The translations under genes and the position numbers were made by a program. A DNA stretch of 63,981 nt, counting the filler, from Reclinomonas americana ATCC 50394 (lineage: Eukaryota): assembly GCA_048213135.1 (NCBI GenBank). It is 4 parts of 3 records of this genome, joined end to end, with 100 filler letters (N's around TTAATTAATTAA, not from the genome) between each part and the next. Parts side by side here need not be neighbours in the genome. Positions count along the whole stretch, not along the records: positions 1 to 27,804 come from PS015280.1; positions 27,905 to 58,365 come from PS015280.1; positions 58,466 to 62,127 come from PS015281.1; 1 more part is not named here. One strand, written 5' to 3'. Positions 3 to 61,400 of this stretch are shown here, piece by piece. The notes below the pieces were generated by a model, which saw only the letters and a list, made by a program, of their open reading frames with translations, made no database searches and was not told the origin of the DNA. Each line of letters starts with the position of its first letter. The stretch's first letter is position 1.

Positions 3-843
3 TATGAGCCGCGGCGACAGAGCTTCGACTTGCGGCGTGTCCACGGGAGCTCGTCACGACGCTGGTTCCTCATTCGTGAGAGCCTCGGTCTGGGCCATCG
101 GGACTCGCTCAACGCGCAGCGCGACTCGGCGACCAGTAGTCATCGCGACTCGCTGGCCAGTCGCAAGGGATCGAATCGTAGTGTGGTTGACACGTACATG
201 ACACTGCCGCCGCGTGCAGCAGCGGCAGCAGCTGCAGCAGTGGAAACTGGTCAACACTCGCAACTGTCCCCGGGCACGCCAGTTTTCGCTCTCGACTCGT
301 CGAGTGTTGTGTCCAGCGAGTCCACCGATTCTGGCGAGGAGTCGGACATGGAGGCGCTGCCATCGCCGATTGCAGCTCGTGATCGGGCAGATGGCGCTGC
401 GGAGTTTGGCGATCAGACGCTGGCGGATACGCGGCGCATGAGTCGCGCAACGTCTATAGCCACGCCTGGTACCACCGGCGGCGCATTCCAACGAGTTGAG
501 TTTGTGTGTTTGGTGGTGTGTTACAACCTGTCCCGTCGACTCATTCTGCATCAGACCAAGAATGCACTTCTTGTCACTACCACTCTCGCGGCGCAACGTG
601 AACACATGCAACTCTCAGACTTGCGTACTCGTCTGGCCTCCAGAGGTGCGGCGACGTCGGTGCGGTTGCGGCTGCAGACGGTGAGTACTTGTTTGTCACG
701 GGGCTGTTGTTTCGTGCTTGTCCTTATCTCACGAGCCGCAGTGGATCGTCCTGGCCATCATCTTCGGCGTAACGTTGGCACTCTTTGTGACCACATATAG
801 AACCACGCGATTCCAGCTGGCCATCGATGTGGACAGCGGCGTT
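3..843 (+). CDS. Partial membrane protein: Ser-rich low-complexity region followed by a TM helix; possibly part of a TmcB/C-like protein
   Basis: Open frame YEPRRQSF...GGAFQR, intron 495-554 (GTTGAG..CAG), TKNALL...RLRLQT, intron 681-740 (GTGAGT..CAG), then hydrophobic WIVLAIIFGVTLALFVTTY up to the N gap. Confidence 0.5.
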
Positions 844-1645
844 NNNNNNNNNNNNNNNNNNNNNNNNNNNNNNNNNNNNNNNNNNNNNNNNNNNNNNNNN
901 NNNNNNNNNNNNNNNNNNNNNNNNNNNNNNNNNNNNNNNNNNNNNNNNNNNNNNNNNNNNNNNNNNNNNNNNNNNNNNNNNNNNNNNNNNNNNNNNNNNN
1001 NNNNNNNNNNNNNNNNNNNNNNNNNNNNNNNNNNNNNNNNNNNNNNNNNNNNNNNNNNNNNNNNNNNNNNNNNNNNNNNNNNNNNNNNNNNNNNNNNNNN
1101 NNNNNNNNNNNNNNNNNNNNNNNNNNNNNNNNNNNNNNNNNNNNNNNNNNNNNNNNNNNNNNNNNNNNNNNNNNNNNNNNNNNNNNNNNNNNNNNNNNNN
1201 NNNNNNNNNNNNNNNNNNNNNNNNNNNNNNNNNNNNNNNNNNNNNNNNNNNNNNNNNNNNNNNNNNNNNNNNNNNNNNNNNNNNNNNNNNNNNNNNNNNN
1301 NNNNNNNNNNNNNNNNNNNNNNNNNNNNNNNNNNNNNNNNNNNNNNNNNNNNNNNNNNNNNNNNNNNNNNNNNNNNNNNNNNNNNNNNNNNNNNNNNNNN
1401 NNNNNNNNNNNNNNNNNNNNNNNNNNNNNNNNNNNNNNNNNNNNNNNNNNNNNNNNNNNNNNNNNNNNNNNNNNNNNNNNNNNNNNNNNNNNNNNNNNNN
1501 NNNNNNNNNNNNNNNNNNNNNNNNNNNNNNNNNNNNNNNNNNNNNNNNNNNNNNNNNNNNNNNNNNNNNNNNNNNNNNNNNNNNNNNNNNNNNNNNNNNN
1601 NNNNNNNNNNNNNNNNNNNNNNNNNNNNNNNNNNNNNNNNNNNNN

Positions 1646-4600
1646 ACTTTGCTGCACCAAAGCCACCCGCGGCCGCAGTGAGCGCGGCACCTGCAGAACT
1701 CGCAAGTGGCGACGTCGCAGTGGCCATCAGTGCCGGCGACGAGTCCGATGCGTGCTCGCTCTTGGGGCTCAATATGCCTCCAGGAGCGGCCAGCAGCGGA
1801 GTGGAGACGCCTACTGGGCACGCCTCATCGCCGCCGTCTCCGCCGTCTCCGCAGTCATCCTCGTCGTCATCCACATTGACTTCACGGGGCTGACTTGCCC
1901 AACTCGCATCCAATTCTGTCAGTCGGTACTCGTTGTCCTCATGAGCTCCGTCCTCTCGGGCAGGCAATCGCGGTTGTGCATCGTTCTGACGTCCAAGCAC
2001 CACTGGTAGATGCTGCAGCTGGCGAGCGAGCCACTCCGTGTCGCTCTCACCAGTTTCGGCTTCCGCATTCGCCGCAACGGGCGAACCGATCATCGGCGGA
2101 CTCCACGACGCACCGCCTACGATTGGCCGTCGGGTCTGCACAGGCGGCAAGCTGCGCACGTGGGTTGACGCCGAGGGGCGCCGCTCAGAGGGATCAGCCG
2201 CAGTCATGGATCTACGTCGCTCCATTGACTCTGCAGCGGCACCAGGTAGTGCCGCCTGATGCATCTGCTCTGGGATAGGTGGCAGTGGCGGTAGCGACTG
2301 CCCGTGCGTGACGTATTCTTCGCTCAGTGCCCCACCGGCCAGTGATTCGACTTCGCTGGCAGCGCTCTGCAGCATGCCAGGAAGTCTCGAGTCCGCGTGC
2401 GGTGCTCTGCCGGCCGCTGCGTTACTGTGTCGAGTGAAGGCGGGATTCAGCGACGGAGCAAGACGACGAAAGACGATGATGGCCTTGTACGCAACTCTTG
2501 TCGCCTTGCGGTGCCGTTGCGGCGGGTTCGACCACGGCCTCGCCGCTTGTCACGCTTCAGGTGCGACTCGGCTGCCGATTCTTCCTCAATACAATCGGCG
2601 TGACGCGCAACGAGTTTGGCGCTGAACGAACTGCGCAGAGTGCCGTGAGCAACCAGAAAAACACAGCTACAAAGCTGGTGGACGCAACTCGTGGTCAATC
2701 TCATCTAGATACTTGGCGTACGCTCGCAGTACGATTGTTGAACCAGAAGCGTCGCGCAGCAATCCGTCGAGCAGCTTCCGCGATTGTGAACCATAGAGTG
2801 CTGCGCGCACAAAAGGGGTGTGAGACAGAGGAATTGTATCCCTGCCGACGCGACAAAACTCTCACGCACCGAGCTTGCGTGTCACTTCGGTCATGCGATC
2901 CTCGTCGGCGTTATTGTGTGCCAAGAGATTCCAAAACTCCGTCATCAGCGACAGCAGTTGACCTTGAAGCTGCTTGGTCACCGCCACACGCTGTCGCACC
3001 GATTGCTCGAGCGATTGCGCCTCTGTAGTCGTGGCCAAGCGCTGCAATCGGTACGAACGAGCGAAAAAGTTGTAGTCCAGCGCCGACGAGACTGGGACGT
3101 CACTGAGCAGCTGCATGTATATCATCAACTAACAATGAGGAACAAGAACTGTGTGCACAGCTCACACGGTATCTGCAAAAACCAAACCGATAGCAACTTG
3201 GCGTCCACGGCGTATCGACTGTGCGGATCGGCAATCTCGTCCAAGTACTGAACTTGCAGCAAGTGGAGCGAGAAGGAGGCAGGATAATGGTGCAGCGCGT
3301 GCGCGAATACGGCGCGTACGGCTGCCGGGTCCATCGTGGCCAGCGAGAAACGCAGGCGCAGTTCCAGCTCCAACTCCGACTGCGCGTCCTCCACAAAGAG
3401 TCGACAAAAGCCATCGTCGTCTTGTGTAACAACTTTGTCTTCCCATGCTTGCGGCGCCTCGCTATCGGGCACCTGCAGAGGGCGCACGCGCCCACTCCTC
3501 TGCGAGCGCAGAGTCACTCACTCGCACCAAAGTGCACAAGCGAGCATGCTCAACACGTACCGTTGCGGTTAAACAAAAGGTGCTGATGGCGAGACGCCGC
3601 AGTACACCGCGTTCCCTCAACCTGATCAGCAGTGGTGCCACCTGCATGATGGGGAACAGAGTGTACATGAGTCTTTCGACGGAGTAGCATGCTCGGAGTG
3701 TGTGCAAGTGTACGCAACGAGTAGCGCCGCCACTACGGCAGCCCCTTGTGCCAGCGGTTGCCACAAGCTCAGCGCAATACCCGAGAAGAACTGATGGGCA
3801 AACACTGCGGCCGCCAGCATGTTGGATGCCGAGTAGGCAAAGGGGAGAGTGCGCGAACTGCGAGTAGATGGTGATGGTCAGCCAGCACACGCATCACCAT
3901 GGCAGCCACAACACGACGCAACGTATATATGGCACCCAGGGCACCACAGATGATCAAGCAGGCCGCCTGTGACATCATACACAAAAGGTGAGCAACAACA
4001 GGCGTCGACACGTGTGTCTCTTTTGCGGTACTCACCGTCGCTCCGCTGCCACCTTGCACCAGTTGGATCATGGAGCCTGCCGTGATGAGCTCCGCGATAA
4101 GCATCCACACAAGCACACGGCTTTGTGTCGGCACGTTGAAGAAGCCAGTGGGCAGTGCGGTGCGTCGCTGCATAAGGAGGGCGAAAACGGGCAGACCGAA
4201 GAACTGCAGCGGGAGCATGCCGCCGACGAGCAAGCCCAGCGCGAGATACCACAACCAGGCAGATGATGCGGCATGCGCGGCCGACAGAATCACCGTCAAC
4301 GAAAGAGAGAGGACCAGTGGCCAGATGGCGAACGCCACAGGCAGACCAATCGCCAGCAGATCGATAACCAATCGGGCACCGATCAACTCCATTCGAATGG
4401 CACGTCGCAAGGCGATCACCGTGAGCACCACACACAGGATTCCGGCCACCAGCACACACACGCCGAGTGCAACGCTCAGCATCGTCACCGCCCGCAACGA
4501 CATCACGAGCGAGGTCTCGAAGCGCGGCAGCAGCCACCACGACGACAGAACGAACACGAGTGACATGTGCACTGCCACACTGGCCGCCACGATCCACGAG

Positions 4601-8204: not shown

Positions 8205-8385
8205 ACCACCGCGCAAGCGCACTCGTCGCTCGCCCTCGTACTCGTCGGCGTCGTCACGCTCGCGATCCATGTCGTCGAGCCGAAGCCGCTCTCCGTTGCG
8301 TCCCAGTTGCATGCGTTACAGGAGCGATGCGCTATAGCTTGCTCATCCTCTTTGTTTCTTTGCACGCAGACCGCCAAAGAAATAA
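8205..8385 (+). CDS. RS/P-rich terminal exons, likely the RNPS1 C-terminus
   Basis: Branch GCTGAC and acceptor CAG at 8204; PPRKRTRRSPSYSSASSRSRSMSSSRSRSP; intron 8295-8369 (GTTGCG..CAG); PPKK* with stop at 8383-8385. Confidence 0.6.
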
Positions 8386-8686: not shown

Positions 8687-9823
8687 CTAGCGGTTGCCTG
8701 CACTCATCATGGCGTGCTGGAGGGCTTGGAAGGTGTTCTGGATGTCCATGAGCTGCGGAAAGGGGATCAGTGAGAGAAGGGCGCCGCGAAGCGGGCAGTG
8801 GAGAAGCATAACAAAGACAGAGATGCAGAGAACCCCAGCAAGGACGCGCGCGCGCGCACGAGAGAGAGATCAACAGAAGAGTGCGATAACCTGGAAGTGG
8901 AGGGGGGAGCAAGATGAAAGACTAGCGAAGGCGAGAACAGAAGAACAAAAAAGAAGAGAGAGTTGCATGCGAGGCGGTGGGAAATGAAGCACCAAAGGAG
9001 AGAACGCAGCAGCGAACAAGGGGAGGATGCGAGAGGAGAGAATTGAGTTGTATGTGAAGCATATCGGAAAGAAGAACCACAGAGGAGGGGAGAAGATGCA
9101 CCAAGAGAAGAAGGAGAGAGAGGCGAAACGCAGAGCAAACAGGAAATGGAGAAAGAGAGCTGCAGAGATGTGAGGTGGGAAGCAGCATGAAAAGGGGGAA
9201 AGAAGAAGTAACAATAATGGGAAGGAGAGAGGCGAAACGAACAGCAAACAGGAAATGGAGAAAGAGAGCTGCAGAAATGTGAGGTGGTGAGACGTGGGAT
9301 GAAAGGGGGGAGAGAAGAAGAAACAATAATGGGAAGGAGAGAGGCGAAACGAACAGCAAACAGGAAATGGAGAAAGAGCTGAGATGTGAGGCAGTGAGAG
9401 GGAGGAAGAGAAGAAATAGAGAGGCGAAGAAGAAAATGCACACCGAGAGAAGAGAGAAAGGACGGCAGAAGCAACACAGGAACGGAAGATGAAGANNNNN
9501 NNNNNNNNNNNNNNNNNNNNNNNNNNNNNNNNNNNNNNNNNNNNNNNNNNNNNNNNNNNNNNNNNNNNNNNNNNNNNNNNNNNNNNNNNNNNNNNNNNNN
9601 NNNNNNNNNNNNNNNNNNNNNCCCTCTCCTTCCTCACACACACACACACACACACACTCACAAGTCATTCCGAATATACTCGATTCGATTACCGACCGTC
9701 TCCTGCGCCTCCGACACCTGCTGCAGCATCAAACACGGCCCAATCAACTTGTACAACTTGGTGTCACTCTCAAGTTGATCAAGTTCCTAAAAAACACAAA
9801 AAAAAACAAACAAACACAGTGAG

Positions 9824-9861
<38 letters not shown>

Positions 9862-10425
9862 CCACACACTGCTCTCTCTCTCACACACACACACTGGCAC
9901 ACACTCTCGCACACACACACACACTCTCTCTCTCTCACACTGGCACACACTCTCGCACACACACTCTCTCTCTCACACACACACTGCTCTCTCTCTCTCT
10001 CACACACACACAACACACACACACTTGCACACACTCTCACAATTACACACTCTTCTTCACATACACTCATTCACTCATTCAAACACACTTGCACACACTC
10101 ACACTCTCTCACACTCACTCCTCTCTCTCTCTCTCACACACACACACACTCTCTCTCTCACAGACAAGTCATTTGCTCATTGTTCTCCTCACGCAACAGC
10201 CTTGACCATGATATTCTCCTGCTCTTGCGTCTCCAGTCGTATGCGGTTGCTCAACAACTGCCCAATCTCTACACAAAACGCGTGTGAGTGAGAGAGAGAA
10301 GGCCATGCACGCGCGTGATCACACACTCTCTCTCTCTCTGTGTGTGACACACCCTTTTCCAGCTCGCGCAACCGTCGCAGCTCGTCCTCGCCCGCCTTCT
10401 GCAACTGCATCAACTCGGCCGCCAT
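8687..10425 (-). CDS. PFDN6: Prefoldin subunit 6 (beta type)
   Basis: Spliced MAAELMQLQKAGEDELRRLRELEK|EIGQLLSNRIRLETQEQENIMVKA|ELDQLESDTKLYKLIGPCLMLQQVSEAQETVGNRIEYIRNDL|gap|LMDIQNTFQALQHAMMSAGNR*; the 'LE.Q..EN..V..EL..L.....YKLIGP' signature is present. Confidence 0.9.
9115..9430. repeat. Degenerate ~110 bp tandem repeat, about 3 copies, in a PFDN6 intron
   Basis: GAGAGGCGAAACG(A)ACAGCAAACAGGAAATGGAGAAAGAG recurs near 9118, 9227 and 9339. Confidence 0.8.
9825..10165. repeat. (CA)n/(CT)n compound microsatellite in a PFDN6 intron
   Basis: Directly visible. Confidence 0.9.
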
Positions 10426-10492: not shown

Positions 10493-12186
10493 ATGGACGA
10501 TGATTGGTGCGACGATGGTGGCGACGATGAGCATGAGCGACACTTGCGCGTAGTCGCCGAGCGAGCAGCTGAGGTAGTCACACGCAGTCTCTTCTTCTTC
10601 TCCTCGTCCTTCTTCTTCTTCTTCTTCTTCTTCTCCTTCTTCTTCTTCTTCTTCTTCTTCTTCTTCTTCTTCTTCTTCTTCTTCTTCTTCTCTCTCTCTC
10701 TCTCNNNNNNNNNNNNNNNNNNNNNNNNNNNNNNNNNNNNNNNNNNNNNNNNNNNNNNNNNNNNNNNNNNNNNNNNNNNNNNNNNNNNNNNNNNNNNNNN
10801 NNNNNNNNNNNNNNNNNNNNNNNNNNNNNNNNNNNNNNNNNNNNNNNNNNNNNNNNNNNNNNNNNNNNNNNNNNNNNNNNNNNNNNNNNNNNNNNNNNNN
10901 NNNNNNNNNNNNNNNNNNNNNNNNNNNNNNNNNNNNNNNNNNNNNNNNNNNNNNNNNNNNNNNNNNNNNNNNNNNNNNNNNNNNNNNNNNNNNNNNNNNN
11001 NNNNNNNNNNNNNNNNNNNNNNNNNNNNNNNNNNNNNNNNNNNNNNNNNNNNNNNNNNNNNNNNNNNNNNNNNNNNNNNNNNNNNNNNNNNNNNNNNNNN
11101 NNNNNNNNNNNNNNNNNNNNNNNNNNNNNNNNNNNNNNNNNNNNNNNNNNNNNNNNNNNNNNNNNNNNNNNNNNNNNNNNNNNNNNNNNNNNNNNNNNNN
11201 NNNNNNNNNNNNNNNNNNNNNNNNNNNNNNNNNNNNNNNNNNNNNNNNNNNNNNNNNNNNNNNNNNNNNNNNNNNNNNNNNNNNNNNNNNNNNNNNNNNN
11301 NNNNNNNNNNNNNNNNNNNNNNNNNNNNNNNNNNNNNNNNNNNNNNNNNNNNNNNNNNNNNNNNNNNNNNNNNNNNNNNNNNNNNNNNNNNNNNNNNNNN
11401 NNNNNNNNNNNNNNNNNNNNNNNNNNNNNNNNNNNNNNNNNNNNNNNNNNNNNNNNNNNNNNNNNNNNNNNNNNNNNNNNNNNNNNNNNNNNNNNNNNNN
11501 NNNNNNNNNNNNNNNNNNNNNNNNNNNNNNNNNNNNNNNNNNNNNNNNNNNNNNNNNNNNNNNNNNNNNNNNNNNNNNNNNNNNNNNNNNNNNNNNNNNN
11601 NNNNNNNNNNNNNNNNNNNNNNNNNNNNNNNNNNNNNNNNNNNNNNNNNNNNNNNNNNNNTCTTCTTCTTCTTCTTCTCCTCCTCCTCCTCCTCCTCCTC
11701 CTCCTCCTCCTCCTCCTCCTCTTCTTCTTCCACTTCTCACATTGTTTTTGCAGAATGCGTTTGTCGATGGTGCGGATGCTGGGCGACAACTGGGCGCACA
11801 GGAGGGCTTTGAGGCGGGTTTCCCCGTGGGCGCACGTGCAGGGTATCGCGTGGGTCGGCTCCGAGGCAATGCCGCGTTGCGTGTTGCTTGGAGGAGGTGA
11901 CAACTCTTTTCTGTCAATCGGTGCTCACTCTTGTGTGCTCAGTGCCTTGCGATTGCTTCGTGCTGCTGGTGGTGGTGGTGGTGAGGAGGAGGTTGATGCG
12001 TTGGTGCAGACGACGGGTAAGCGGAATCCGCGGTTATTGCCGCCGGCGATGCTGCAGGCGCTTGCGGCGGGCGGTGGTGGTGAGGCGGAGGAGGGAGGAG
12101 GAGATGGTAGTTTGCGCGTGTTTTACACGGAGCTGCGGGAGCGTGTGGATGCGTTGTTGGAGCGGAGTGGGGTGAAGCCGGAGTGA
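10493..12186 (+). CDS. YAE1: Yae1-family protein (Fe-S maturation adaptor for ABCE1/Rli1)
   Basis: MDDDW...AERAAE| intron with (CTT)n and gap |NAFVDGADAGRQLGAQEGFEAGFPVGARAGYRVGRLRGNAA: GX3 repeat with QEGF; intron 11876-11942; ends GVKPE*. Confidence 0.75.
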
Positions 12187-29786: not shown

Positions 29787-30140
29787 GTTGCGTCTCGCGC
29801 ACCTACTGTTGTTGTCTCGTGTACATGCACGCTGAATGTATACNNNNNNNNNNNNNNNNNNNNNNNNGAGAGAGAGAGAGAGAGAAAGAAAGAAAGAAAA
29901 CGCAATGCAAACGATTATGAGCATCGGTAAGGTCTCCCAAGCCAGTCTGTTCACCAGAGACAAGGACAAAGCGCGCGAGAGGGAGAAGAACTAGGAGAGT
30001 ACATTTTCGAAATGGTCTCGCACAGCCCTTCACGAATCGCGAAACAACGTGTATGCACAACAGGCCGTCACTCACAGAGAAAGAGAACAGATCCCACACA
30101 GCTCAACGCGAATCACGAAACGCCATGTGCGCAAAGCTGC

Positions 30141-43036: not shown

Positions 43037-43049
43037 CTCTTTCTCTTCC

Positions 43050-45500: not shown

Positions 45501-48500
45501 ATGACGGGCATTCGTCACGCGACAGCAGTTTTTGCACTGCTGGTCATGATGCACGCGCTACTGGCACTTGGTGAGTGACGATGATACACTTTCTCTCGAC
45601 ACTCGCCAAAGTCAGTCGTCCCGTTTCTGTATGCTCCCTGACACGCTGATTTGTTGTTGTGCGCGAAGCGGCCAGTCCGACCGACATTGCGCTCTCGTCG
45701 ACCGTGTACCCGCCCTTTGGAGGCATGACGGTCGGTCAACTGTCTTCGACAGACGCAGGTGAGTGCCGGTGTGCATTTCCGACGACTACGGCAACAACCG
45801 TTGCTTCGTTAAAAAAACGGTCAAATACCAATGCGTTTCTTCCGAAAACGCTTCCTGCTGTGCAGATCAGAACGATACGTTCACCTACACGCTCTCCGGC
45901 GCCGATGCCGCCTTGTTTGAGATCAAAGGCAACAACTTGGCGCTCAAGTGCAGCACGCCGGTGCTGCCGTACATGGCCCCGAGTCCGCCCAATCCGCCGC
46001 AGCCGCCGATCACCCGGTGAGTCGTTTTGGCACTTGTCTGTGGGAGGTTATATGCGGTACTCACTAACGCGTGTGCCATTAACGCTCCACGGTGCAGCGA
46101 TCTCAACATCTCGATCACCAGCACCGACAGCATGAGCAACACCTTCACCAAGCAGTTCACGCTGGCCAATGGTGCGCACGTGCCCGTTACTTCTTGGCGC
46201 TCAACGCCTCTGCTTGCTCACTTTCCTTGTTGCAGGTGGTGCACTGTGGTCGCTGGCCGGCCGCCCGCCGAATGTAATTTTCAACAATCCCACCGATGTT
46301 GTCTGCAACACGCAGGGCGATAAGTTGCGCACGCGAACGCCTTCATCGCATGATCTTTGATATCGAGTGTTTGCAATGTCTCGATACTCTTCTCCCTCAA
46401 TCCTCACCCTCCTCCAGAACACGTTCCTGTCTTTAAAGACTAACTAGTTGATTAGTCTCCCCTCTCAGTTCACGTTCTTCCTGTTCTACTTCTCTCTCTC
46501 ACTCTCATTTATTCTTCTCTCTAGCCCTCTTCTCTTTCTTTTCTCTCGTCTTTCTTTTTCTCCTCTCTCGTCCTCTTCGTTTTCTTCTTTCCCTCTTGTC
46601 CTCTTCTATGTCTTCTCTCTCTCTCGCCCACTTCTCTCACCTTTCTCTCATCCTCTTATTATTCTTCTCCCTCTCCTTCTCTTCTTCTTCTCTCTCGCTC
46701 ACTTTTCCTTCTCTCTCGCCATCCCGTTATTCTTCTCTCTCTCCTTTTTTCTTCTTCTCTCTCCCTCGCCCTTTCTCCTTCCTCTCCCCTGTCATGCACT
46801 CATGTACTTTTTCGAATGACCACAGCAAGAAGTGCTGGGTGGCCGACACCGGCAACCACGTTGTCCGCGTCAACACAGCTGGCACCGGCGGTGAGCACCA
46901 TGCCAGCCTCTCCCACTCCTCCCCTTCTTCCGCCCCTATCTCATCTTCTATTTTTTTTCGCTGCAGACTACCCCGTCTTCTTCGGTTCGGCCGGCACCTC
47001 GGGCTCTGGCGCCAGCCAGTTGTCGTCGCCCGGTGGACTGGCCTACAACACGGCCACCAATGAGGTGTACATTGCCGACACGGCCAACAACCGCATTCTT
47101 CGTGTGCCGCGTGCTGGCGGCAACGCCACCGCGATCACCATCACCGGCGCCAGTGGCCAAGGTCTCAGCGCACCGTCTGGTCTGGCCTTGAGTGGCACCA
47201 TCACGTTTATGGGCGGCACCAACCGACTGGCCATTGCCGACACGGGCAACCACCGTCTGCTCATTGTCGACACCACCACGTGGGCCGTGGTGACCAACGG
47301 CGAAATCGGTCTGCGCGGCACGAGCGGCAGCGTGCAGGGCGACGCCACCACCACCCGCTTCAACAGCCTGCGTGGCGTGACTTTCCTCGGCACGACGCTG
47401 TACATTGTGGACTCGCTGAACCATCAAGTCCTGTCGTTTGACGGCACCAACACGGCCAAGGTCGCCGGTGTCGGCACCTCGGGATTCGTCGATGGAGCCA
47501 CGGGTAGCGCCAAGTTTGCCTCGCCGGCCAACATTGCGGCCGAGACCGTCAGCAACAATACGGTCCTCTACGTCTCCGATCCGGTAAGCAAGCTGTCACA
47601 ATCTCGCTGTGTGATTGTGCCTGTGCCACTCATGCATTCCTCTTTGTTGTGACGCGTAGGGCAACAATCGCCTCCGCAAGATTGCCAATGGTCAGGTGTC
47701 GACCATGGCCGGCGGCAGTGTCGCCGGCAACCGCGACGGCGCGCCGCTGTTTGCGCAAATGCAGGGACCCGCGGGCTTGACGCTCACCACCGGTCCCATC
47801 AGCGGTCGCACTATCATCTTCTTTGTCGAAAAGGACAGTCGCCTGGTGCGCGTGCTGGACACGATTGCACCAAGCGGCAACACGGTGGCATGCGGAGTCG
47901 AACCTCCTGTTGCGTGTGTGTGTGTGGCACGCGGCGCCGTCTTTCACGCCTGCGATCTTGATTTGCTTACCAACTTTTTCCCACACAGAACATTGTCTCC
48001 GGCACTGCCATGTCCCTGTTCGGCGCATCGCTCGTGGCCGCCTCCACCGAGGTGACTATCGAGGCCTCGTCGAACCAGGCATGTGCTGGTACCAATGCCA
48101 CTGGCCTTTCCATCAACACACCGTCGGAGGACGTCAACCAGCCCGGCCGCGTCATTTTCACACCGACGATTGCTGCCGGTGCGACTCTTTCGTTTGGCCA
48201 GTTCCGCCTCTGCGTGCGCTTTGGCGGCGCAGGCAACTGGATCCAGGCTGCCATCCTGTCACTTAATGGTGGCGCGCCGACTGACATCAAGCTCGACACC
48301 ATCTTCTACCCGCCGGCTCCGGGCGCCCTTGTCGGTGTTCTCACGGCCACCGATCCCGACCCCAACGACACATTCACCTTTGCGATCACTGGCGGACCCA
48401 ACGCCGACATGTTCCACATCTACAACAACAACATGCTGCAGCTCAACTGCAACGCCCAGGTGTTCCCCACCACTCAGGGACCGTGCAACGGAACGCCGAT

Positions 48501-51500
48501 GCAGTGCGGCAGCGCCACTCTGTCACTCAATTTGACAGTCCGCGACGCCACCGGCAACATGTTCCAGAAGATGATCTCGTTGAAGAATTCGCGCGGTGTG
48601 CGTACCGTGTGCGGCACTGGCACGCAGGGATTCTCCATGTTGCGTCACCTCTTTAACTATGTTGGCGCGAACCGCCAGTGCTCACTGTACGTTGCACACG
48701 CTGCAGTTCTGGTGCCTGCTCGACGCAGCAATTCAACTCGCCGACCGGCATGGCCTGGGTCCCCGGAACCAACGAATGTGCGTGCGCACACATGTGGCCT
48801 CTGTTTTTTTTTCTTCTCTCTCTCTCGCCGCTTCTCTAAACATCATCCGCTTCCTTATTGCAGTGTATGGAGTGGACTCGGGCAACCACGTTGTGCGCAA
48901 GACCATTGCCGGCGACAATGGTGTGTCGTCCGTCGTGGTGGGTCTGGGTGGCACCTCCGGTAACGTGCAAGGCCAGCCCGGCGTGTCGCGCCTCAACACG
49001 CCGACGGGTATCACGGTGAGCCGTGTGACACCACCACCATCTATGATTAATTTGGCACAGTGCCTCACTCTTCGCTGCGCAGTACGATCCGGCCACTAGC
49101 AATTTCTTCGTCACCGACAGCGGCAACAACCAAATCATTCGCTTCAACCGCAACGGGTAAGCTCACAGATTGGCCATCGCCGTTGTCACGCTTTTGCTGT
49201 TGCTGCTCACCACTTTCACAGCGGTGCGGTGGCGGTCTTGTCGTTGACGGGAATCACGCTCAGCAACCCGACTGGCATCTTTTTCATGGCCTTCAACGCG
49301 TTCGGCGGCTCGGGTCGCCTGGTGGTGGCCGACACTGGTAACAACAAGTTGCGTGCACGAATGATGCGGTATCGAGGTTTACGGTGCAGCCTTACCGACC
49401 CGATGCGTGTCACAGGGTGTACGTCCTGAACAACACGTCGGGCGACACGTGGGCGCCGACCTTGACCATTGGTGACGGCACATCGGGCCTCAATCGCGCA
49501 GCGGTGAGCATCACCATGGCGGGTCGCAGCTGAGAGATAATGACAGACTAACTTGTGTGTGTTTCGCTCCCGGCAGCCTGCGGCCACGAAGCTGAACGGT
49601 CCGACAGGTGTGGTGGCTGCTATTGTGAGCGGCACCGCATACATTTACATTTCAGACACTGGTGCGTTTGGGTGTATGTGTGCGTATGGTCCTTTGTTAC
49701 GTTGCCGACTGACATTATGCTCGCTTGCTGGCTATCAGGAAACCACGCCATTTTGCGTGCTACCGATCAGGCTGTGGAGCTGTTCAGCGGACCGACGGCG
49801 GCTACCGCTGGCTACGCCAATGGCGTGACAGCCAATGCGCGATTCCGATCTCCAGCGTCCCTGCACGCCAACCCGGAGCAGGGAGTGTTGGTGGTGGCCG
49901 ACAAGGTACGCGACGCCGAGACACGGACACATCTGCAGGGAAACAATGTGAGCCTCATCGCTCGCTCCCCGTGCACAGGGCAACAACGTGATTCGCACGG
50001 TGAAGCTGGCCGACGGCTCCGCCGACACGCTGGCTGGTGCGCCTCCGGCGCAGAACGGCGCAGCGGCGACCGCGGCTTTCAAGGACGGCTTCCTGAATGT
50101 GGCGCAGTTCAGCGCGCCGTCGCACGCAATTGCGATTTCGCTGCCGACTGGCGATCCCAATAGCCCCGACAACGTTTACGTGGTGATGGACTCTGCCAAC
50201 AATGTTGCGTGCTAATAGGCAAAGGATCGTTTTGAAGTTTTCAAAAACTCACTATTATCGCAGCGCATCCGCACGATTGAGATTGGTGGCTCCAAGCTGT
50301 TGCACGCACCGTGTGGCGTGGTGCCGGACAAGGTGACGGGCACGACTGACATTCAGATTCGCGGTATCAGCATGACCACTGGCGATGTTGCGTCAACGTG
50401 TTTCATGTTTTCACTTGATTCCTCCACGAGTGAGAGTGCTCATTCCCTCGCACTACACAGTCCTTTAGTTTCGAGACCGGTGACGGCGCCTGCACCGGCA
50501 CCTCTTCCACCGGTGTTACTCTCGGTCAGCTTTCGGCTGTCACTCCCAATGGCGGCGGCGAAGCGTACTTGACAGGCACACTGACGGTGGCCGACGCCGC
50601 GGCACGCTCCAACTACAAGGCCTGCGTGCAATACGCTGACGGAACTCGCGCTCGCTACAACTCCTTGGGCATCTTGATGGCGGGTACAGTCGGTGGTGGT
50701 GGCAACGCCGGCGGCGCCAACGGCCAAGGACCGGTGCAACCGACGCAAATGTTTGTTGGCGCGGCAGTCACTACCGTGACCATCAAGGGCACAAATATCG
50801 CTATCTCAGCGACGAATGCGTCATTCAGTCTTACTTTGGTGCCGCGCACGGCAACATGCGGAAGCACCACGCACGCAACCATCACGCTGGGTACACCGGC
50901 AGCTCCCACGGCGGATGCAACCGACCTCATCACGGTGACCGTGGTGGCCTCTGCACGAGGATGTTGCGTGCGCTACATGAATCGCGTTGGCTGTCGGCCG
51001 TTCTGTTGACATTATCCCTCTTCTAGATTTCAAGTTCTGCTTGAAGCGCCCCGGAGACGCCGCCTATACCGCCATCAGCGATTTCATTGTCTTTGCCAAC
51101 CCTCCTGGCTCAGCAGTTGCGCCTGTCACCAACACGACCGCTGTGTATTGCTTGTATATGCTGACGCTTTTTGCACTCCTCCCTCGCAGTCGCAGCCAAT
51201 GCCGGTTCCCCGTGGAATTCCAGTGTCGGTCAAGATCGTCGCGGCGGGATTCCACGCGCAAGATGTTATCACCGCCGTGGATGGTGGCACCTGCCAGCCG
51301 CTCGTGAATGGCCAGGTCTCATTCGCCGTCACTCCGTTTTCGCATATCTCATTTCCTCAGTGCTAACCCTGCTGCCTCAGGTGTCGGATCCAGTGGCCTC
51401 TCCCAATGTTACTGTGACTATGGGCACTATTTCTGCCACATCCATGTACGTGGGCATCACCTCGACGCTGCCAGTCTCGCGTAACTTCCGTCTCTGCATC

Positions 51501-54500
51501 AAGGCAAGTTTACACACACTCGACATGTTCTCCACCAACCGCGCTTCTGACACGATGTCACGCAACAGTACATTGGCTCGGACCGCTACGAGGACCTCAC
51601 GATGCTCCCAACGGACGTCGGTGCGTCGCTGTTTCTCGCTTTGTTCCCATCCGCCAAATCTGCGACTCATTCACCACGTTTGCCACACCTGCAGCTCAAT
51701 TCACCAGTTTGTCAAAGCAGTCGTTTGCCGCCAAGTCGGTCACCGACAAGATCACCATCAGGTCGAATGTCTTCCAGACCGAGTCCAGCGTCAGCGGCTC
51801 GTTCATTATCATCGCCAACACGGCTCAGTGCACGCCCACCGCGTCCGCACCGTCCGGCGTCAATCCGGGCACGATGAACATCATCTCGGCGACCGACGGT
51901 GTCGCCAACCTGTCGTACTCGGCTGCCGACTCTGGCCAGTTCCGACTGTGCTACCGCACTGGCGCCACCGACCCCGCAGTTGTCGACGTTCAGGGCGGTT
52001 TCTTCCAGGTCAATGGTGATGTCGCCAAGCCGCCGGAGGGCTCGATTCGCGGATTCGCGGTGGGTTTCCGCAAGTTCCGGTGAGTGCACACAATTTCCTG
52101 CCTCTGCGCGTCGCCAGCGTTATGCTAATCTTGTGCGGCAATTGCAGCATTGAGTGGACAGTTCCGCAAAGCTCGGACGCTGGAGTGGCGCCAAGTGATT
52201 TCAGCCTGTCGTTCCGCCAGTTCGGAGGGACAGCGCAGACCGCCATGGTCAGCAATGCATCGTTTTACGAATCGACACCTTTTGCTCCGGTACGCCATCA
52301 CATGCAGCGACTATTTCTCTGCAATCAACACTAACGCGAAACTGTGCAACAGTCGCTGGACCAACGCAAGATCACGGAAATCAAGATCACCGCGTTGAAC
52401 GGATCACTGAAGAGCCAGAGTGTGACTGTGCCGGATATCATTATTCCGGGTCTGAGCCAGCCGCAAGATGTCGCCTTTTCTGACGTGAGTGTCACACGCT
52501 TCATAATGCCTCATTCTTGTCAATGTGCGTCTCACAACAAACAAAATGTGCAGGGTTCTCGCGCCGGCCACACCATCATTCAAGTGATTTTCCCGGGTGG
52601 TGGAACCGCCGCCGGCGCCGGTCAACAGGGCCCGAGTAGTGGAACCGCTGCCGGTCAACAGGGCACGCAGACCAACCCCGACACTGCCAACATGCAGTGG
52701 AAGCTGGTGGTCGGCACCAGTGCCTCAACCGCAGCTGCCGACTCGAGCGCCGCAGCAGCTGGAAATGCGCAGGCCACTCTTACTGCCACGTTTAACACTC
52801 CCGACGCCAGCAGTTCGCTGTCGCGCCCCAACGGTTTCCTCGTCGACGTGCTCGACTCTGCGTGGGTTGGCCCGGTGCCAGGTACGATTGCGTCAGGCGA
52901 TGCAGGCATGACACGGACATGCACTCACCTCAATTGTACGCAGTCGCCACGTTGAAGATGAACAATGCCCAGCTGACGAGCCTGAAGCTGACGTACACGC
53001 TGGACGGCATCGAGTCGCCAGCCGTCTTCAAGCAGGTGAATGTCAAGCCGCCGACGGAGACCATTGCGGCTCCAGTGGCTCCAACGAATGGCCTCCTAAC
53101 TCCCGACGGCAACGGCATTCGCGTCTCGTGCGTGCTGTTTCCGCCATGTTTTCTTCATGTTTCGTGGACTGTGTCTGATTGTTCATCGGCAGGTGGACAC
53201 CGCCTTCGGCCGATCTGTCGGGCGGTGCTGCTGTGACGGGCTTCAAAGTGTCGCTGTCGATGACGCTCGGCACCACGCAGGCGGTGGAGCGTGTGCGCTT
53301 TGTGGACGGTGCCAACACTTCGTCTACATTGATCGACAAGGTCATTCCGGGCGCCGACGCCGTGCTGCGCATCTGGTCCACCAACTCGCAGGCGCAGTCC
53401 ACCACGCCATTTGAGCTGCGGACGTCGATTTCGAATGCCTGTTGCGTCATATGCCTGTTTGCATTCGCTTCTCCCCGGTCATTTATTTTGTCGCTCACGG
53501 CTCTTCAACGCCAGTGCCTCCGCAACCTGCCGGTCTCAGCCTGCTGTTCGACAAGGGCTCCGTCAAGTTCCAGTTCACCACGCCTGCAGACGGCACCAAC
53601 ATGGCGTACGCGTACTCGGCCACCATGTTGCGTCTAGATAAATCTACATTTGTCGACACCCTACATGGACTCACCTTCGCATCACTACAACAGCGATGGC
53701 TCCTCGACACCGTTCGACACCAAGGACTTTACCGATGTGATGCCCAAGCAGACTGTGACCATTCCGTGGTCCTCGATGCAGTTGGGAACGTGGAGCAAGT
53801 TGGCAGTGACGGCCAAGCTGCGCAACTCATCGGGCGTTCGCGAAGCCACCCTCAATCTGAACAACTTGGCGAACCTGTTCAACACTCCATCGACTGGTGG
53901 CAGCAACAATGGCACCGGCACTGGCAACGGCAACGGCACCGGCACTGGTACTGGCTCAGGCAACAACACTTCCAATCAACCAGCGCCCACGATCGACAGT
54001 TTCGTAGTTTTTTAAATGTTGGTGCTTGCAGTGCGTATGTCGATCACTTACTCATTTCCCCTGTAGAGCAACAAGTGCTCGATCTGTCACTCGGCAGCAC
54101 CGACGCCAACGGTACACCCGGTGCCATTGATGGTCTGAAGGGTGTGGTTGGCGCTGGCTGCAAGGATCGAGTCGGAGCGGAGTGCTCGCAGATTGCCATC
54201 GCCAACCGCAGCGACAATGTGAGTGGTATTGGCTTGCTCCTGTGTCACATTCTCTCTTACCCTCACCCCTCTCTCGTCGTCGCAGTCGATTGTGGTGGCC
54301 AACGCCACCGGTGACTCGACGGATCTTCCGACCCTGACCATGGTCATCAAACGTTGCGTACATGTGAGAGGAATGTGTAGTTAAATCGACCGCCACTCAC
54401 TCACGTATCTGCTCGCAGCATCGGATTACTTCCTGATCACCGACCCGAACGCCAAGTTCGGACTGTTCTACCAGACTGGTTCGGGCTCGTCGTCGTCGTC

Positions 54501-58327: not shown

Positions 58328-58409
58328 TGTCACCAAAACACACACAAAAGTAAGTCACCAAGCAGNNNNNNNNNNNNNNNNNNNNNNNNNNNNNNNNNNN
58401 NNNNNNNNN

Positions 58410-58421
58410 TTAATTAATTAA
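58410..58421. other. Artificial contig linker
   Basis: TTAATTAATTAA inside an N run. Confidence 0.95.
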
Positions 58422-58465
58422 NNNNNNNNNNNNNNNNNNNNNNNNNNNNNNNNNNNNNNNNNNNN

Positions 58466-61400
58466 GACCCAGATCCTTGGTCGTCTCCGTCTTGCCCGTA
58501 CCGGCGGGACCGGCAGGCGCACCACCCTGTTGTTGTGGGGGGAAAAGAAAGAAAGAGTGAGCTGCCGAAAGAAAAGTAACACTCTTCCACAAACAAACGG
58601 TTGACACACCTGCACCAAGCGCAGCGCCTGCGTCAGGGTAATGTAGCAGCGATCGGTCAGCGGCGTAATGACCAGGCAACCGCAGTTGCCAATGTACTCG
58701 TAGCCGTAGCGGAACTCGGCATCGGCCACCATGATGGTGCACTCGCGCAACTCATCATCCCAGGCCATGCGCAGCTGCGACTGCCACGCAAACACCAAGT
58801 GGTTCTCGGCGGCGTTGGTCACCAAGCTGGTGACCACATCACGAGCGTGCACCTCAATGGTGATCAGAGTGATGATCTTGCGGCGCTCGTCGCCAGTAAG
58901 CTCGCCACGGACCAGCGTGGCCAGCTTGCTCAGGTTCTCCACCTGCTGCTTGTTGTAGTCGCGGACGGCGTTGGCGTTGCCCTCCTCCTTCATGCCGAAC
59001 GCATTGTCGACATCGCGTGTCCACCAAATGCGCGACACAGCAGTGACAATCTGCGCCGGGTACGACTCCAGCCACGAGGCGAGGGCGGCCTCACGCTCGG
59101 GCTCGGCGTACGAAGTGGCGGCATCGGCCAGAATCTGGCGCAGTGTGTCGGCAATGTGCGCAATCAGGCCGTTCAGCCAGTCCTCGACAGCTCCCTCGCA
59201 GTTGAACGGGCTGCGGAACATGACCTGTGACAAAGGCAGAGAGAGTGGAGTGCATGAGTGACGACAGTTAAGCACACCACGGTCCCTCCACCATCACACC
59301 GGTACACACCTCTTCGCCTTCCTTGGAGATCATGCCAATGGCGATCTTGGACGGCTCGGCGCCCTCCGGCACCGACTGGAAGATGAGCGTGTCGAGCGAG
59401 TCGACGAGCTTGCCGATGTGGCGCATAATGAGGTGCGGCGTGCTGCCCTTGGACAGAATGTCGACCAGATCGGCAGGCGACACAAAGTAGAAGCGCGGGA
59501 AGATCTTGCGCTTCGTCTCCAGGTAGTCGGCCAAGGCCTTCTCGCACTTCTCCAACTCCGCCTCCATCTCGCGCAGCAGGGTCATAAAGTCCTTGCTCGA
59601 GTTCATCTTGCGCTGAATGGTGTCCTCGGCACAGGCCTCGACGACGTTGGTGACGCTCTTGGCCTGCTGCATAATGTCGCGGAACACGCGATCAATGCCT
59701 TCGAATCGGCGCGAGTCCTCGGGCAATTGCTCACTGCACACGCATGAAAAGAGGAGAGTCAGTGACGCGGTCGACCGCAGCGACGACAATAGCAGACACA
59801 CAAACCGAATATCGGCCGACAGCACGAAAATGGGGTACAGGTTGGACCACTTGCCCTGCACGTTGGTCCACAGGCGAATGCCCTCGTCGACAGCGCCGAC
59901 AATGTTGGACCACTTGGTCACCTCCTTCTCGAAGAACTCGACATTGCGGCTGCCAGCCATGCCTTGCAGCATCATCTACAAAACGCCAAGGGGGTCAGTC
60001 AGGGCAAAAAAGAATGCGGTCACTTGCACTATGCTGCGGCGCCGACGCAACTTGATGCTCCTCGACGGCCTCCATGATTTCGTCCGAGAGCTTCATGAGG
60101 TGCACCTTGAGCTCATCGCTCTCTTCGTACTCGAAGACGAGGATGGCCCACGCGTCCTTGATCTTTTGCAGATTCTTCTCAATGGCCAGCTCCTTCATGG
60201 CCTTGTCGACAATCGTCGACACCTCCTCCACGTACTCGTGCAGGCCCAGGTCGATGAGTTGCTGCAGGCAAAAGTCGTCGGCATCCGGGTTGATGGCTGC
60301 AGGAGGCGAGGCGAGTGAGAAGGGAGGGTGGAAACGGAGGCAAGAGGGAGACTATTGGAGCGCAACTGCCAGTCTTGTTGGTCTCGGTCAGCAGCTGCTT
60401 CCAGTGGCGCGCTCGCATTGCGGGGTTGCGCAGATCGGAAATCAGCGGCAGGGCGGTGAGCATGTTCTGCACCTCCGCGTCGAGGCCGTTGTAGACGTTG
60501 TAGCTCTTGATCTCCTTGTTGAAGGCGCGCATCAGCAGTTGCAGCTTGCGCGTCTCCTCCGTCAGCGAGTCGACCTCCACATTCTTGAACGCGGTGAGCA
60601 TCCACGAGTCGAACTGGTTCTTGACCAGCGCCGACATGTCCCACACTTGCTTGAGGTTGACCAGATCCGAGCGGCACATCTGCGCCAGACAGAAAAAGAT
60701 AGGGTGAGAAAAAGAAGAGAAAAGTGGAAGGGGCAGGATGACACACACCTTGAGCGAGCGGAAGTCGGTGGGCGACAGACCAAAGAGGCCCTGCAGGTTC
60801 TTCAGCTCCTCATTCTCGCGCTCCATGCGCACCAATTGCTGTTGCTGCACGTCGAGAGCATCGTAGGCCCTGTCGACGCCGACATTCCAGTCGAACGGTG
60901 CGTCCTGCTCGAACTTGCGGCGGAACGCCGTGACCTTTTCGGCAAACACATCCACCGACACCTTGATCTTCTCCGCCTCCTTGTCCTGCAGCGGGCTGAG
61001 CTCGGCACGCTTGTTCAGCACGCGAGTCTTCAGCTTGTTCCACTGCTGCGGGTAGTTCTCCAGTTGCGTGTACACCACGTCGGGCACGGGCGAGTTGCAC
61101 TTTTTCAAGAAATTGACTGCACACCACCAACCAACCATTCCATCAGTATCACCACCATATCCACACTCCTCGTGAAAAAAGAAAAAAAACTCACCAATAT
61201 TCTTCAGCGGCTCCCACATGGTCTCAATCGCCTCCTCGCGCTTGAGCACCTGGCGAATGTGACCCATGACCTCCTTCAACACGGCGAGGTTGTTGTCGGG
61301 CACGTCGACAGAGATGCCGCGGCTGACGGTCTCCATGAACTCGGCCAGCTCGTCGAGCGTGTTCTGCACGCGGCTCGACAAGTGCTCGGTGTAGTCGGCA

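Follow-up and report, generated by a model that had tools for sequence, protein, structure and literature searches.

A second, offset class of predicted 5' splice sites, W/GTTGCG(T/C), in a 64-kb window of the Reclinomonas americana genome

Introduction

How is the 5' end of an intron marked when the exon cannot end in a G? The question is raised by a stretch of DNA from the intron-rich genome of Reclinomonas americana ATCC 50394 (63,981 nucleotides, filler included; assembly GCA_048213135.1; hereafter the window), for which a preliminary description listed 18 donors that carry GTTGCG or a close variant of it. To our knowledge, almost all that is known of non-canonical registers of U1 snRNA comes from a few rare sites in humans, each tested singly in minigenes. 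If the signal has truly slid by one base here, this rare human oddity would be a routine way of marking introns, and a genome with a fifth of its introns on offset donors would be a natural large-scale experiment. Such a genome could be used to address how U1 binding is uncoupled from the later choice of cleavage site by U6, U5 and Prp8, how important the exon-end G is, and how evolvable the 5' end of U1 is.

Methods

Introns were predicted with a gene finder that applies dynamic programming to codon usage, GT...AG ends, a score for branch site and YAG acceptor, and intron length (limit, 400 nt). In the donor-agnostic run there was no donor model beyond GT; in the refined run the same gene finder was used after a donor mixture had been learned from its own output. 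A stricter, supported set of 69 introns comprised 43 with standard donors, 16 with offset donors and 10 with neither. A YAG acceptor was a selection rule for this set, so its presence in 16/16 offset introns is expected. The standard and offset classes of the supported set were defined by our own patterns; the counts from the donor-agnostic run are the only ones that do not depend on such a definition. Throughout, a slash before GT marks the exon–intron boundary and negative positions are exonic.

Results

Existence and extent of the class

A second, discrete class of 5' splice site, W/GTTGCG(T/C), is present in the window beside the usual G/GTGAGT and G/GTGCGT. Judged from the DNA, its members are predicted to be donors of U2-type GT-AG spliceosomal introns. 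GTTGCGT was the top donor heptamer in the donor-agnostic run, at 10/115 donors compared to 29/7,199 GT sites of the window (binomial p = 5.7e-11). The plain GTTGCG hexamer was not enriched in the window (67 occurrences, against 51.5 ± 8.3 in shuffles), and the enrichment is thus specific to donor positions. An unsupervised mixture fitted to the donor-agnostic donors gave two components, ..G/GTGcGt (~48) and cA./GTTGCGT (~17).

All 18 listed sites had the sequence ascribed to them (16 GTTGCG, a GTTGAGT at 495 and a GTTTCGT at 53999), and their exon-end base was A, C or T at 18/18 and never G, as had been claimed. Most of them were upheld as donors: 11/18 were recovered in the donor-agnostic run and 15/18 in the refined run, the exceptions being 8295, 29787 and 495 (Table 1). 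The open + frame downstream of 8295 scores -24.8 bits by codon usage and therefore lacks coding support, and the 60-nt stretch at 495 is in frame without a stop, so that an intron is not demanded by the frame. Reading through the supported offset introns gave a stop or a frame shift in 16/16, and their flanking exons had positive codon scores. Ten further candidates lay beyond the original list, at 47909, 51116, 33913 and 21773 on the + strand and at 30484, 36666, 3922, 3718, 2688 and 2495 on the - strand. At 47909 the pick of the donor-agnostic run had been a GT without consensus, 12 nt upstream. At 30413..30484 (-) the frame could do without an intron; the candidates in 2425..3922 (-) have good branch sites and weak codon scores in the flanking exons, and 3922 was also a donor-agnostic pick. 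The interval 46324..46825 (+) appears most likely to be one 502-nt intron across a CT-rich stretch.

Offset donors made up 25/126 predicted introns (20%) and 16/69 of the stricter introns (23%), in line with the earlier estimate of roughly a fifth, with all donor counts coming from one 64-kb window and 12/25 offset donors lying within one gene. Their spread was uneven: in the refined run, 12/35 introns in one NHL-repeat gene were offset, compared to 13/91 elsewhere.

Table 1. Offset introns and candidates in the window, in order of position. DA, donor-agnostic run; R, refined run; S, supported set.
Interval	Strand	Donor	Length (nt)	Run or set	Gene and remarks
495..554	+	GTTGAGT			Listed site, unverifiable; only GAG variant proposed; in frame
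2425..3922	-			R	Four candidates in one gene, donors 3922, 3718, 2688, 2495
8295..8369	+				Listed site, unconfirmed; good intron signals
9787..10197	-	gct/GTTGCGT	~411		Prefoldin subunit 6; GA/GT microsatellites
11876..11942	+	cgc/GTTGCGT	67	R, S
20188..20276	+	aaa/GTTGCGT	89	R, S	Weak branch site
29787..29843	+				Listed site, unverifiable; coding segment ends 29786, putative intron meets N gap at 29844
30413..30484	-	tca/GTTGCGG	72	DA	In-frame candidate, newly found; CTCAC branch site
46324..46825	+	taa/GTTGCGC		R (split)	Proposed from the frame; split around 27-nt pseudo-exon, equal phases
47909..47988	+	cct/GTTGCGT	80	R, S	Newly found
48639..48706	+	cat/GTTGCGT	68	DA, S	CTCAC branch site 22 nt from end
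49348..49415	+	caa/GTTGCGT	68	DA	NHL-repeat gene
50204..50263	+	aat/GTTGCGT	60	DA	NHL-repeat gene
50387..50460	+	gat/GTTGCGT	74	DA, S
50963..51026	+	gat/GTTGCGT	64	DA, S	TAG acceptor; weaker branch site TTGAC
51116..51189	+	gca/GTTGCGC	74	R, S	Newly found
53441..53514	+	cct/GTTGCGT	74	DA, S
53627..53693	+	cat/GTTGCGT	67	DA, S
53999..54066	+	aca/GTTTCGT	68	DA, S	Variant
54353..54418	+	aac/GTTGCGT	66	DA, S
59976..60051	-	caa/GTTGCGT	76	DA	Dynein heavy chain
60297..60366	-	gca/GTTGCGC	70	DA	Dynein heavy chain

Junctions with protein-level support

Five offset junctions have protein-level support: two in dynein, one in prefoldin 6 and two in an NHL repeat motif. Across the 60366 junction the spliced dynein product aligns gap-free to its four nearest homologs (P0003, P0010, P0004 and P0001); 15/42 spanning HSPs are gap-free, and the others have an indel of 3 residues, which belongs to other forms of dynein. 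At the 60051 junction, 48/49 homolog HSPs have no gap within 5 residues, and the exon ends given by tblastn are concordant. In the prefoldin 6 gene, the exon downstream of the intron (9786-9679) has matches among the chains of prefoldin 6 in the PDB (E = 3e-4), the spacing from an E-N pair in the upstream exon to L (chain residue 47) equals that in the PDB chain, and an in-frame TGA lies 9 nt beyond the donor. The NHL motif, D-x-x-N-[NH]-[RKQ]-[ILV], occurs 4 times within exons and is completed exactly across the 49348 and 50204 junctions; once all predicted introns are removed, this gene has a frame of 2,278 codons with 0 stops.

Exon-end base and anatomy of the motif

The two classes differed sharply in the exon-end base. 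In the donor-agnostic run, G was found there in 0/12 GTTGCG donors and in 34/41 donors of the standard pattern (p = 1.9e-7). The refined run gave 0/23 compared to 58/73 (p = 1.8e-12), and the supported set 0/16 offset compared to 38/43 standard donors (p = 2e-10). Non-donor GTTGCG sites are preceded by G in 7/44 cases, against which 0/23 at donors is only modestly unusual (p = 0.019). Where the -1 base is not G, GTTGCG donors outnumber standard-pattern donors by 16 to 5 in the supported set. Offset donors most likely serve those places at which coding constraints leave the exon without a final G.

The conserved block of seven bases runs from -1 to +6 in standard donors, G/GT(G/A/T)(A/C)G(T/C), and from +1 to +7 in offset donors. 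As previously proposed, the G that standard donors carry at +5 is found at +6 in the offset class, although in the supported set the +5 G of the standard class, and the +3 T and +6 G of the offset class, are true by construction of the patterns. The +3 T is required: GTTGCG(T/C) served as a donor at 11/49 occurrences, compared to 1/79 for GT(A/C/G)GCG(T/C) (p = 1e-4). What found no support was the description of each variant as an ordinary donor with one extra T. The ratio of GCG to GAG was 11:0 in offset and 10:16 in standard donors (donor-agnostic run, p = 6e-4), and GTTGAG(T/C) yielded 0 donors among its 14 occurrences in the window in both runs. Standard donors vary at the positions that match G+4 and C+5 of the offset class (GA 14, GC 13, other 16; n = 43), whereas all seven offset positions, these two included, are nearly invariant.

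On the exon side, A at -2 was enriched (9/12 offset compared to 8/41 standard donors, p = 7e-4) and there was a tendency towards C at -3 (7/16). G is rare at -2 in standard donors (4/43), which matches its absence (0/16) at -1 in the offset class. The standard exon-end profile fitted offset exon ends best when slid by one base, at -86.9 bits; background gave -98.5 bits, and the profile kept in the same register gave -136.9 bits. The slid profile was better than background by 11.6 bits in the supported set and 5.2 bits over all donors, yet the -2 A fits the unshifted exon register. The first base of exon 2 was G in 1/16 offset and 18/43 standard introns (p = 0.011).

Proposed pairing with U1

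In the best explanation that we can offer, and one to which we give an even chance, base pairing of the U1 5' end at offset donors is displaced into the intron by one register. The +1 G of the intron would stand in for the exon-end G, the +3 U for the +2 U, and GCGU for the block from +3 to +6, while cleavage would still fall before GU, set later by U6, U5 and Prp8. The requirement for T at +3 is a prediction of this register, since the +3 U replaces the +2 U opposite A7 of U1. Two observations on the flanking exons speak against it: the enrichment of -2 A fits U10 of U1 in the canonical exon register, as a bulged duplex would have it, and the scarcity of G as the first base of exon 2 is not predicted by a register shift.

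The canonical U1 5' end forms no stable duplex with the offset motif in either register; energies were -0.6 to -1.4 kcal/mol, compared to -6.1 to -10.5 kcal/mol for standard donors. H/GUUGCGU pairs more weakly than H/GUGCGU (-2.3 kcal/mol) or H/GUGAGU (-6.7 kcal/mol), so pairing energy alone leaves the preference for an extra T after a non-G base unexplained. With GAG in place of GCG behind the extra T, the duplex would be stronger (-3.8 kcal/mol), yet GAG was used in 0/14 cases. Because GCG is near-obligatory and the canonical duplex is weak, a simple shift of ordinary U1 fails to explain the choice of GTTGCGT. To select this motif would take either a second U1 or one whose positions 5-6 can pair with G-C. 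For the same two reasons, U1 in this organism has probably departed from the canonical sequence at the two positions facing G-C. A search for snRNA genes within the window found none.

An unlikely alternative keeps U1 in its canonical exon-side and +1/+2 register, with a U at +2/+3 bulging out and GCGU pairing in the usual place from +3 to +6. UU at +2/+3 is found in all offset cases, exactly as in the human +2/+3 bulge class, and the -2 A and -3 C would fit U10 and G11 of U1 in the canonical register. However, a bulge at +3 makes no demand for U there, and yet donors with another base there are almost absent (1/79, as above). An exon-end G would also add a pair (-5.9 compared to -0.6 kcal/mol), which leaves its complete absence (0/23) unexplained, and the conserved footprint would be expected to span eight bases, not the seven that are seen.

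We think it quite unlikely that the reader of the motif is instead a further snRNA of the U1 type, or a U1 whose 5' end has been remodelled, with full complementarity to GUUGCGU, which would give the offset class a "canonical" register of its own. Such a partner would suit the seven near-invariant positions, among which G+4 and C+5 would face tolerant pseudouridines of canonical U1, as well as the bias of 11:0 for GCG over GAG, the near absence of a duplex with the canonical U1 end, and the excess of GTTGCG over standard-pattern donors after a non-G base. Against it, there is no sign of a second machinery in the branch site or the 3' end, and U1 5' ends rank among the most conserved RNA sequences. 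No less doubtful is the broader proposal of two parallel 5' splice-site codes in one spliceosome, G/GTRMGT read by ordinary U1 and W/GTTGCGT by a second or remodelled one, in which the choice would be set by whether the coding sequence supplies an exon-end G.

It is very improbable that the class is an artefact, either of gene-model errors or of a homopolymer overcall that turned GTGCGT into a sequence with TT in a draft of low quality. Assembly quality in the window is indeed poor (7,758 N in 21 runs), a dynein gene is without its motor across a gap, and 3/18 listed sites are unverifiable. However, the base at which the exon ends can have no influence on sequencing errors (0/23 compared to 58/73), 17 GTGCG(T/C) donors in the same run lack the extra T, five junctions are fixed by protein conservation, and the motif emerged from a donor-agnostic model.

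The rest of the intron

Beyond the donor, offset introns were ordinary. Median lengths were 67 nt (offset) and 69 nt (standard; p = 0.30), and the branch A lay a median of 19 nt from the intron end both in offset introns and in the 43 standard introns (p = 0.98). CTCAC was the top branch motif in both, and CTCAC, CTCAT, CTGAC or CTTAC was present in 14/16 supported offset introns. Local alignment of intron interiors scored 7.1 within the offset class, 7.7 within the standard class and 7.4 between them (253, 861 and 966 pairs), and comparison of 5'-3' end pairing and of folding showed no difference between offset and standard introns. U12 donors have a consensus of the ATCCTT type, and their introns carry a distinct branch motif near the 3' end. 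An abundant class with a rigid 7-base donor and no exon-end G does recall U12-type donors, but GTTGCGT is unlike ATCCTT, interior similarity is no higher within the class than outside it, and length, branch site and 3' end are ordinary, so that a separate intron type, be it a U12-like one whose consensus has changed or a mobile intron (introner) present as copies, is scarcely credible.

Discussion

Gene finders that use a single donor matrix would misplace about one in five exon boundaries in this organism. Our donor-agnostic run took a nearby consensus-less GT at 5/16 supported offset donors (11876, 20188, 33913, 47909 and 51116).

Shifted-register human 5' splice sites were reportedly described by Roca and Krainer in 2009. 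In the passages of PMC4856993 drawn on here, human U1 has both the shifted register and the +2/+3 bulge register as established modes of pairing, and validated non-canonical registers together account for 1.5% of 201,541 human sites. The offset donors resemble the human shifted-register sites in that the consensus block begins one base late, with G at +6 and not +5 and no exon-end G, and in that U1 would pair one position downstream, with cleavage at GU. Unlike the human sites, which are rare in that account, they make up 20-23% of the predicted introns in the window, and their sequence is almost fixed (GTTGCGT) and pairs poorly with the canonical U1 end. In the human class with a +2/+3 bulge there are 68 predicted and 54 curated sites (Roca et al. 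2012, via Table 3 of PMC4856993). This class shares with the offset donors two U at +2/+3 and a displacement of the remaining consensus by one base. As that table presents it, the human class differs from the one described here, which is abundant, strictly excludes an exon-end G and always has T at +3.

In C. elegans, the cryptic donor of unc-73(e936) reportedly lies at -1. The passages of PMC6140464 consulted here describe a G-to-U change at +1 in this allele, with use of the cryptic donor, and report that +6 G is common among slippery alternative donors. On that description, unc-73(e936) is a precedent for a spliceosome able to cleave at a GU that lies one base upstream of the original U1 register, although the site is mutant, inefficient and out of frame, whereas the offset donor is predicted to be a normal, in-frame donor of many genes.

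U12-type introns share with the offset class a rigid donor motif and the lack of a preference for an exon-end G; their donor sequence is unrelated, however, and the branch site of offset introns, and its distance, are as in the ordinary introns of the same genes.

"Left-handed" and "right-handed" donors have been linked to LUC7 proteins. Donors also show a "seesaw", in which -1 G and +5 G compensate for each other, exon side against intron side (cf. PMC8283771). Offset donors behave similarly in that, without the exon-end G, their intron side is stronger and more fixed. In contrast, the known compensation keeps the register, by a better match from +3 to +6, while here it takes the form of a single motif displaced by one base.

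Donor classes among predicted introns

Donors were sought with a dynamic-programming gene finder whose first run held no donor model. Codons were scored by the window's own usage; introns started with GT (or GC, penalised), ended with AG, and were scored only from a fixed CTNAY branch-site matrix, YAG and length. The locally better strand was taken by comparing smoothed scores, as shadow genes otherwise appeared on both strands. In this donor-agnostic run the top donor heptamer was GTTGCGT, at 10 of 115 GT donors compared to 29 of the 7,199 GT sites in the window (p = 5.7e-11), and the top hexamers were GTTGCG (12), GTGAGT (11) and GTGCGT (9). Unsupervised mixture modelling, which assigned ~43% to noise, split the donors into two types, ..G/GTGcGt (~48 sites) and cA./GTTGCGT (~17), where the slash marks the exon end. 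We refer to donors of the GTTGCG(T/C) kind as offset and to those of the GT(G/A/T)(A/C)G(T/C) kind as standard.

The preliminary description listed 18 offset sites, all of which carry the sequence given for them, with none preceded by G (0/18). The donor-agnostic run recovered 11 of them. A refined run, in which the learned mixture served as donor score, predicted 126 introns, recovered 15 of the 18 and added 10 candidate offset donors. We regard the observation as borne out, with 15 of the 18 recovered, 5 backed at protein level and three unverifiable. Site 8295 has no coding support downstream by codon-usage scoring, the putative intron at 29787 enters a gap, and that at 495 is in frame and without a stop. 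The share of offset donors, put at very roughly a fifth of introns, came to 20–23% of predicted introns in the window. It was 12 of 35 (34%) in the NHL-repeat gene and 13 of 91 (14%) elsewhere, with 12 of the 25 offset donors lying in that one gene. We conclude that the offset donor class is very probably real.

Exon-end G was seen in 0 of 12 GTTGCG donors of the donor-agnostic run compared to 34 of 41 standard-pattern donors (p = 1.9e-7), and in 0 of 23 compared to 58 of 73 in the refined run (p = 1.8e-12). A stricter set of introns had both flanking exons with positive codon score, a branch score of ≥3 bits, a YAG acceptor, a stop or frameshift upon read-through, and a length ≤250. Its 69 introns comprised 43 standard, 16 offset and 10 with neither pattern; the standard group was defined by G at +5, and the offset group by T at +3 together with G at +6, so these positions are invariant there by construction. 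Exon-end G was present in 38 of the 43 standard and 0 of the 16 offset introns (p = 1.9e-10).

Non-donor GTTGCG sites in the window are preceded by G in 7 of 44 cases, against which rate the 0 of 23 for donors gives p = 0.019. Because G is infrequent before any GTTGCG, the strong statement is that the usual demand for exon-end G is lifted in offset donors; that G is actively avoided is likely, but a less secure claim. Where an intron lies in phase 0, the exon ends on a third codon position, of which ~80% are G or C; even so, six of the seven offset introns of this phase had A or T there, which speaks for a real preference for these two bases. A at –2 was also enriched (9 of 12 offset, 8 of 41 standard; p = 7e-4).

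On the other side of the intron, the downstream exon of the stricter set began with G in 1 of 16 offset compared to 18 of 43 standard cases (p = 0.011). With G rare there and never at the exon end, offset introns sit in exon contexts without G on either side, which no U1 model predicts.

Genes of the window and conservation across junctions

The window contains 7,758 Ns in 21 runs. Third-codon-position GC is 0.77–0.86 in confident exons, and short introns are numerous. The main features are collected in the table.

Genes and other features located in the window (positions along the whole stretch)
Feature	Position	Strand	Remarks
Axonemal-type dynein heavy chain gene	56.7–62.1 kb (56741–62125)	–	N-terminal region 2, start of AAA1 and C-terminal domain present
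First dynein intron	61842–61949	–	Two competing models
Dynein 60366 junction	60297–60400	–	3-residue stretch nearby
Gap in dynein gene	58366–58465		
Large NHL-repeat gene	45.5–55.2 kb (45489–55215)	+	
2OG-Fe(II) oxygenase gene			
Adenylate kinase and zinc alcohol dehydrogenase genes	24.5–27 kb	–	
Prefoldin subunit 6 gene			Exon match to PDB chains
Predicted intron with hairpin	28679–28906	+	228 nt

Predicted dynein exons were joined in a script and the product was compared with homologs. At offset junction 60051, 48 of 49 alignments had no gap within five residues. Offset junction 60366 was gap-free in 15 of 42; every gapped alignment had one and the same 3-residue indel, a feature of other dynein forms. 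The homologs nearest to the product, four in number, aligned without a gap and were similar on both sides. Eight standard junctions, all following G, were gap-free in 32/33, 35/37, 55/55, 52/57, 38/38, 59/59, 60/60 and 59/59 alignments. Junction 61944, in an unconserved stretch, was gap-free in 3 of 14, and zero alignments spanned junction 56857.

The 3-residue stretch near the 60366 junction is common to Euglena, Trypanosoma, Angomonas and one JGI homolog, and absent from chytrid, algal and animal dynein homologs; this sequence pattern hints at Euglenozoa affinity or a shared dynein paralog. Among named relatives of the dynein, a Euglena gracilis transcript comes closest (49%). An ENA fragment has 75% identity over 57% of the C-terminal exon, six JGI metagenome loci (L001–L006) have 41–48% over the full match, and a seventh (L007) has 61% over 26 residues. 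Identity of the 2OG oxygenase to any match is ≤48%.

Two models compete for the first dynein intron, aga/GTATCGT (108 nt) and atc/GTGCGTG (87 nt). The former would make A, not T, the extra base of an offset-type donor; homology there (the 3 of 14 gap-free alignments) is too weak to choose between the two. The dynein gene passes from the AAA1 start to the C-terminal domain across the two 44-N runs of the gap, and several thousand codons, which make up most of the motor, are absent. The sequence is therefore collapsed or mis-joined there.

In prefoldin 6, PDB chains 6nr8_6 and 7wu7_6 match the exon downstream of the intron at 10197 (E 3e-4). Counted by hand, the distance between E-N of the upstream exon and the L that opens the alignment is the same as in the printed chain; phmmer with the 23-residue upstream exon gave zero matches. 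An in-frame TGA nine bases beyond the donor forbids read-through.

With all predicted introns removed, the NHL-repeat gene reads through 2,278 codons with no stop. Within exons, D-x-x-N-[NH]-[RKQ]-[ILV], the repeat motif, is present 4 times; joining the exons at one standard junction, and at offset junctions 49348 and 50204, also completes it exactly. This is one gene of at least 2,278 codons with 35 predicted introns, whose product combines NHL repeats with long stretches rich in Thr, Ser and Gly and, at the C terminus, a membrane span carrying a basic tail.

No snRNA or tRNA genes were found within the 64-kb window, only sub-threshold miRNA-family matches on a microsatellite hairpin. This long hairpin (–92 kcal/mol, z –5.5) pairs a (GA)n run with a (TC)n run within a predicted intron; a miRNA was rejected there, the matches to three plant miRNA families being a microsatellite artefact.

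Proposed pairing with U1 and alternative explanations

What could account for the offset donors? The best available model, which we infer and consider to have an even chance of being right, is a shifted register, in which U1 would pair one base further into the intron. Such a register is established for rare human sites, as described in PMC4856993. The conserved block is seven bases in both classes, –1 to +6 in standard and +1 to +7 in offset donors. Moved along by one base, the exon-end profile of standard donors describes the offset exon ends better than background does. Just as G is never seen at –1 in offset donors, it is rare at –2 in standard ones (4 of 43). In the donor-agnostic run, GTTGCG[TC] was used as donor at 11 of 49 occurrences compared to 1 of 79 for GT[A/C/G]GCG[TC]. 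T would be demanded as the extra base because, in the shifted register, the +3 U would pair at the place usually taken by the +2 U. A register with a bulged U is a possible but rather unlikely alternative: a simple bulge at +3 need not be T, yet non-T at +3 accounts for only that 1 in 79.

The shifted register does not explain everything. In the donor-agnostic run the block following the extra T was GCG in 11 cases and GAG in none, compared to 10 and 16 in standard donors (p = 6e-4). GTTGAG[TC] gave 0 donors among 14 occurrences, the sole proposed case being the unverifiable site at 495. The duplex of the canonical U1 5′ end with the offset motif is –0.6 to –1.4 kcal/mol, weaker than with motifs that lack the extra T (H/GUGCGU –2.3, H/GUGAGU –6.7 kcal/mol). 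The near-fixed GCG, the weak duplex and the –2 A and exon-2 G biases do not fit a simple shift of ordinary U1. The earlier reading of the class as a shifted register is partly supported: the one-base offset is exact and the extra base is T, but the GCG bias, the duplex and the –2 A enrichment do not fit it. U1 pairing with G–C at its positions 5–6 would account for the near-obligatory GCG. GAG may be absent because a second defect would not be tolerated once one, U opposite C8, is already spent.

Both the GCG bias and the weak canonical duplex would be accounted for by a second U1 that is complementary to the motif over its full length; we regard such a dedicated or remodelled U1 as improbable, slightly more so than the bulge. 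Standard donors at +4 (n = 43) have C in 21 and A in 16, and never G. C being as frequent as A would be unusual if U1 had pseudouridines at both positions 5 and 6, and hints that the U1 end of this organism is not canonical.

Offset and standard introns are otherwise alike. Median length is 69 nt in offset and 67 nt in standard introns (p = 0.30), CTCAC is the commonest branch motif in both, the branch distance is 19 nt in each (p = 0.98), and GC content, folding energy and pairing between the two ends are similar. Offset interiors are no more similar to each other than other introns are. A U12-like system at the branch site (motif and distance are standard), an introner family (interiors no more alike) and end pairing in the style of euglenid intermediate introns (5′–3′ duplex –6.6 compared to –7.0 kcal/mol, p = 0.53) are therefore ruled out. 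The two classes differ only at the donor and in the exon bases next to the intron, and another type of intron is a very improbable source of the class. An artefact is just as improbable, and a homopolymer overcall of T as the source of GTTGCGT was rejected: a read error would not follow the exon base before it (the 0 of 23 compared to 58 of 73), and 17 GTGCG[TC] donors of that run carry no extra T. Whatever likelihood these explanations leave falls to something else.

Comparison with known systems

The running text of the papers searched gave no printed description of a GTTGCGT/GUUGCG donor, only primers, guides and unrelated papers; some genome paper may have described it earlier. Among the closest known likenesses to the offset class are the human shifted and +2/+3-bulge registers reported in PMC4856993, the cryptic donor of C. 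elegans unc-73(e936) (PMC6140464), which lies upstream, and the way in which the exon and intron sides of donors generally compensate for each other in strength. According to PMC4856993, all validated non-canonical U1 registers make up 1.5% of 201,541 human donors. What is new here is how common the class is, at 20–23% of predicted introns in the window, together with its near-fixed donor sequence and its poor fit to canonical U1.
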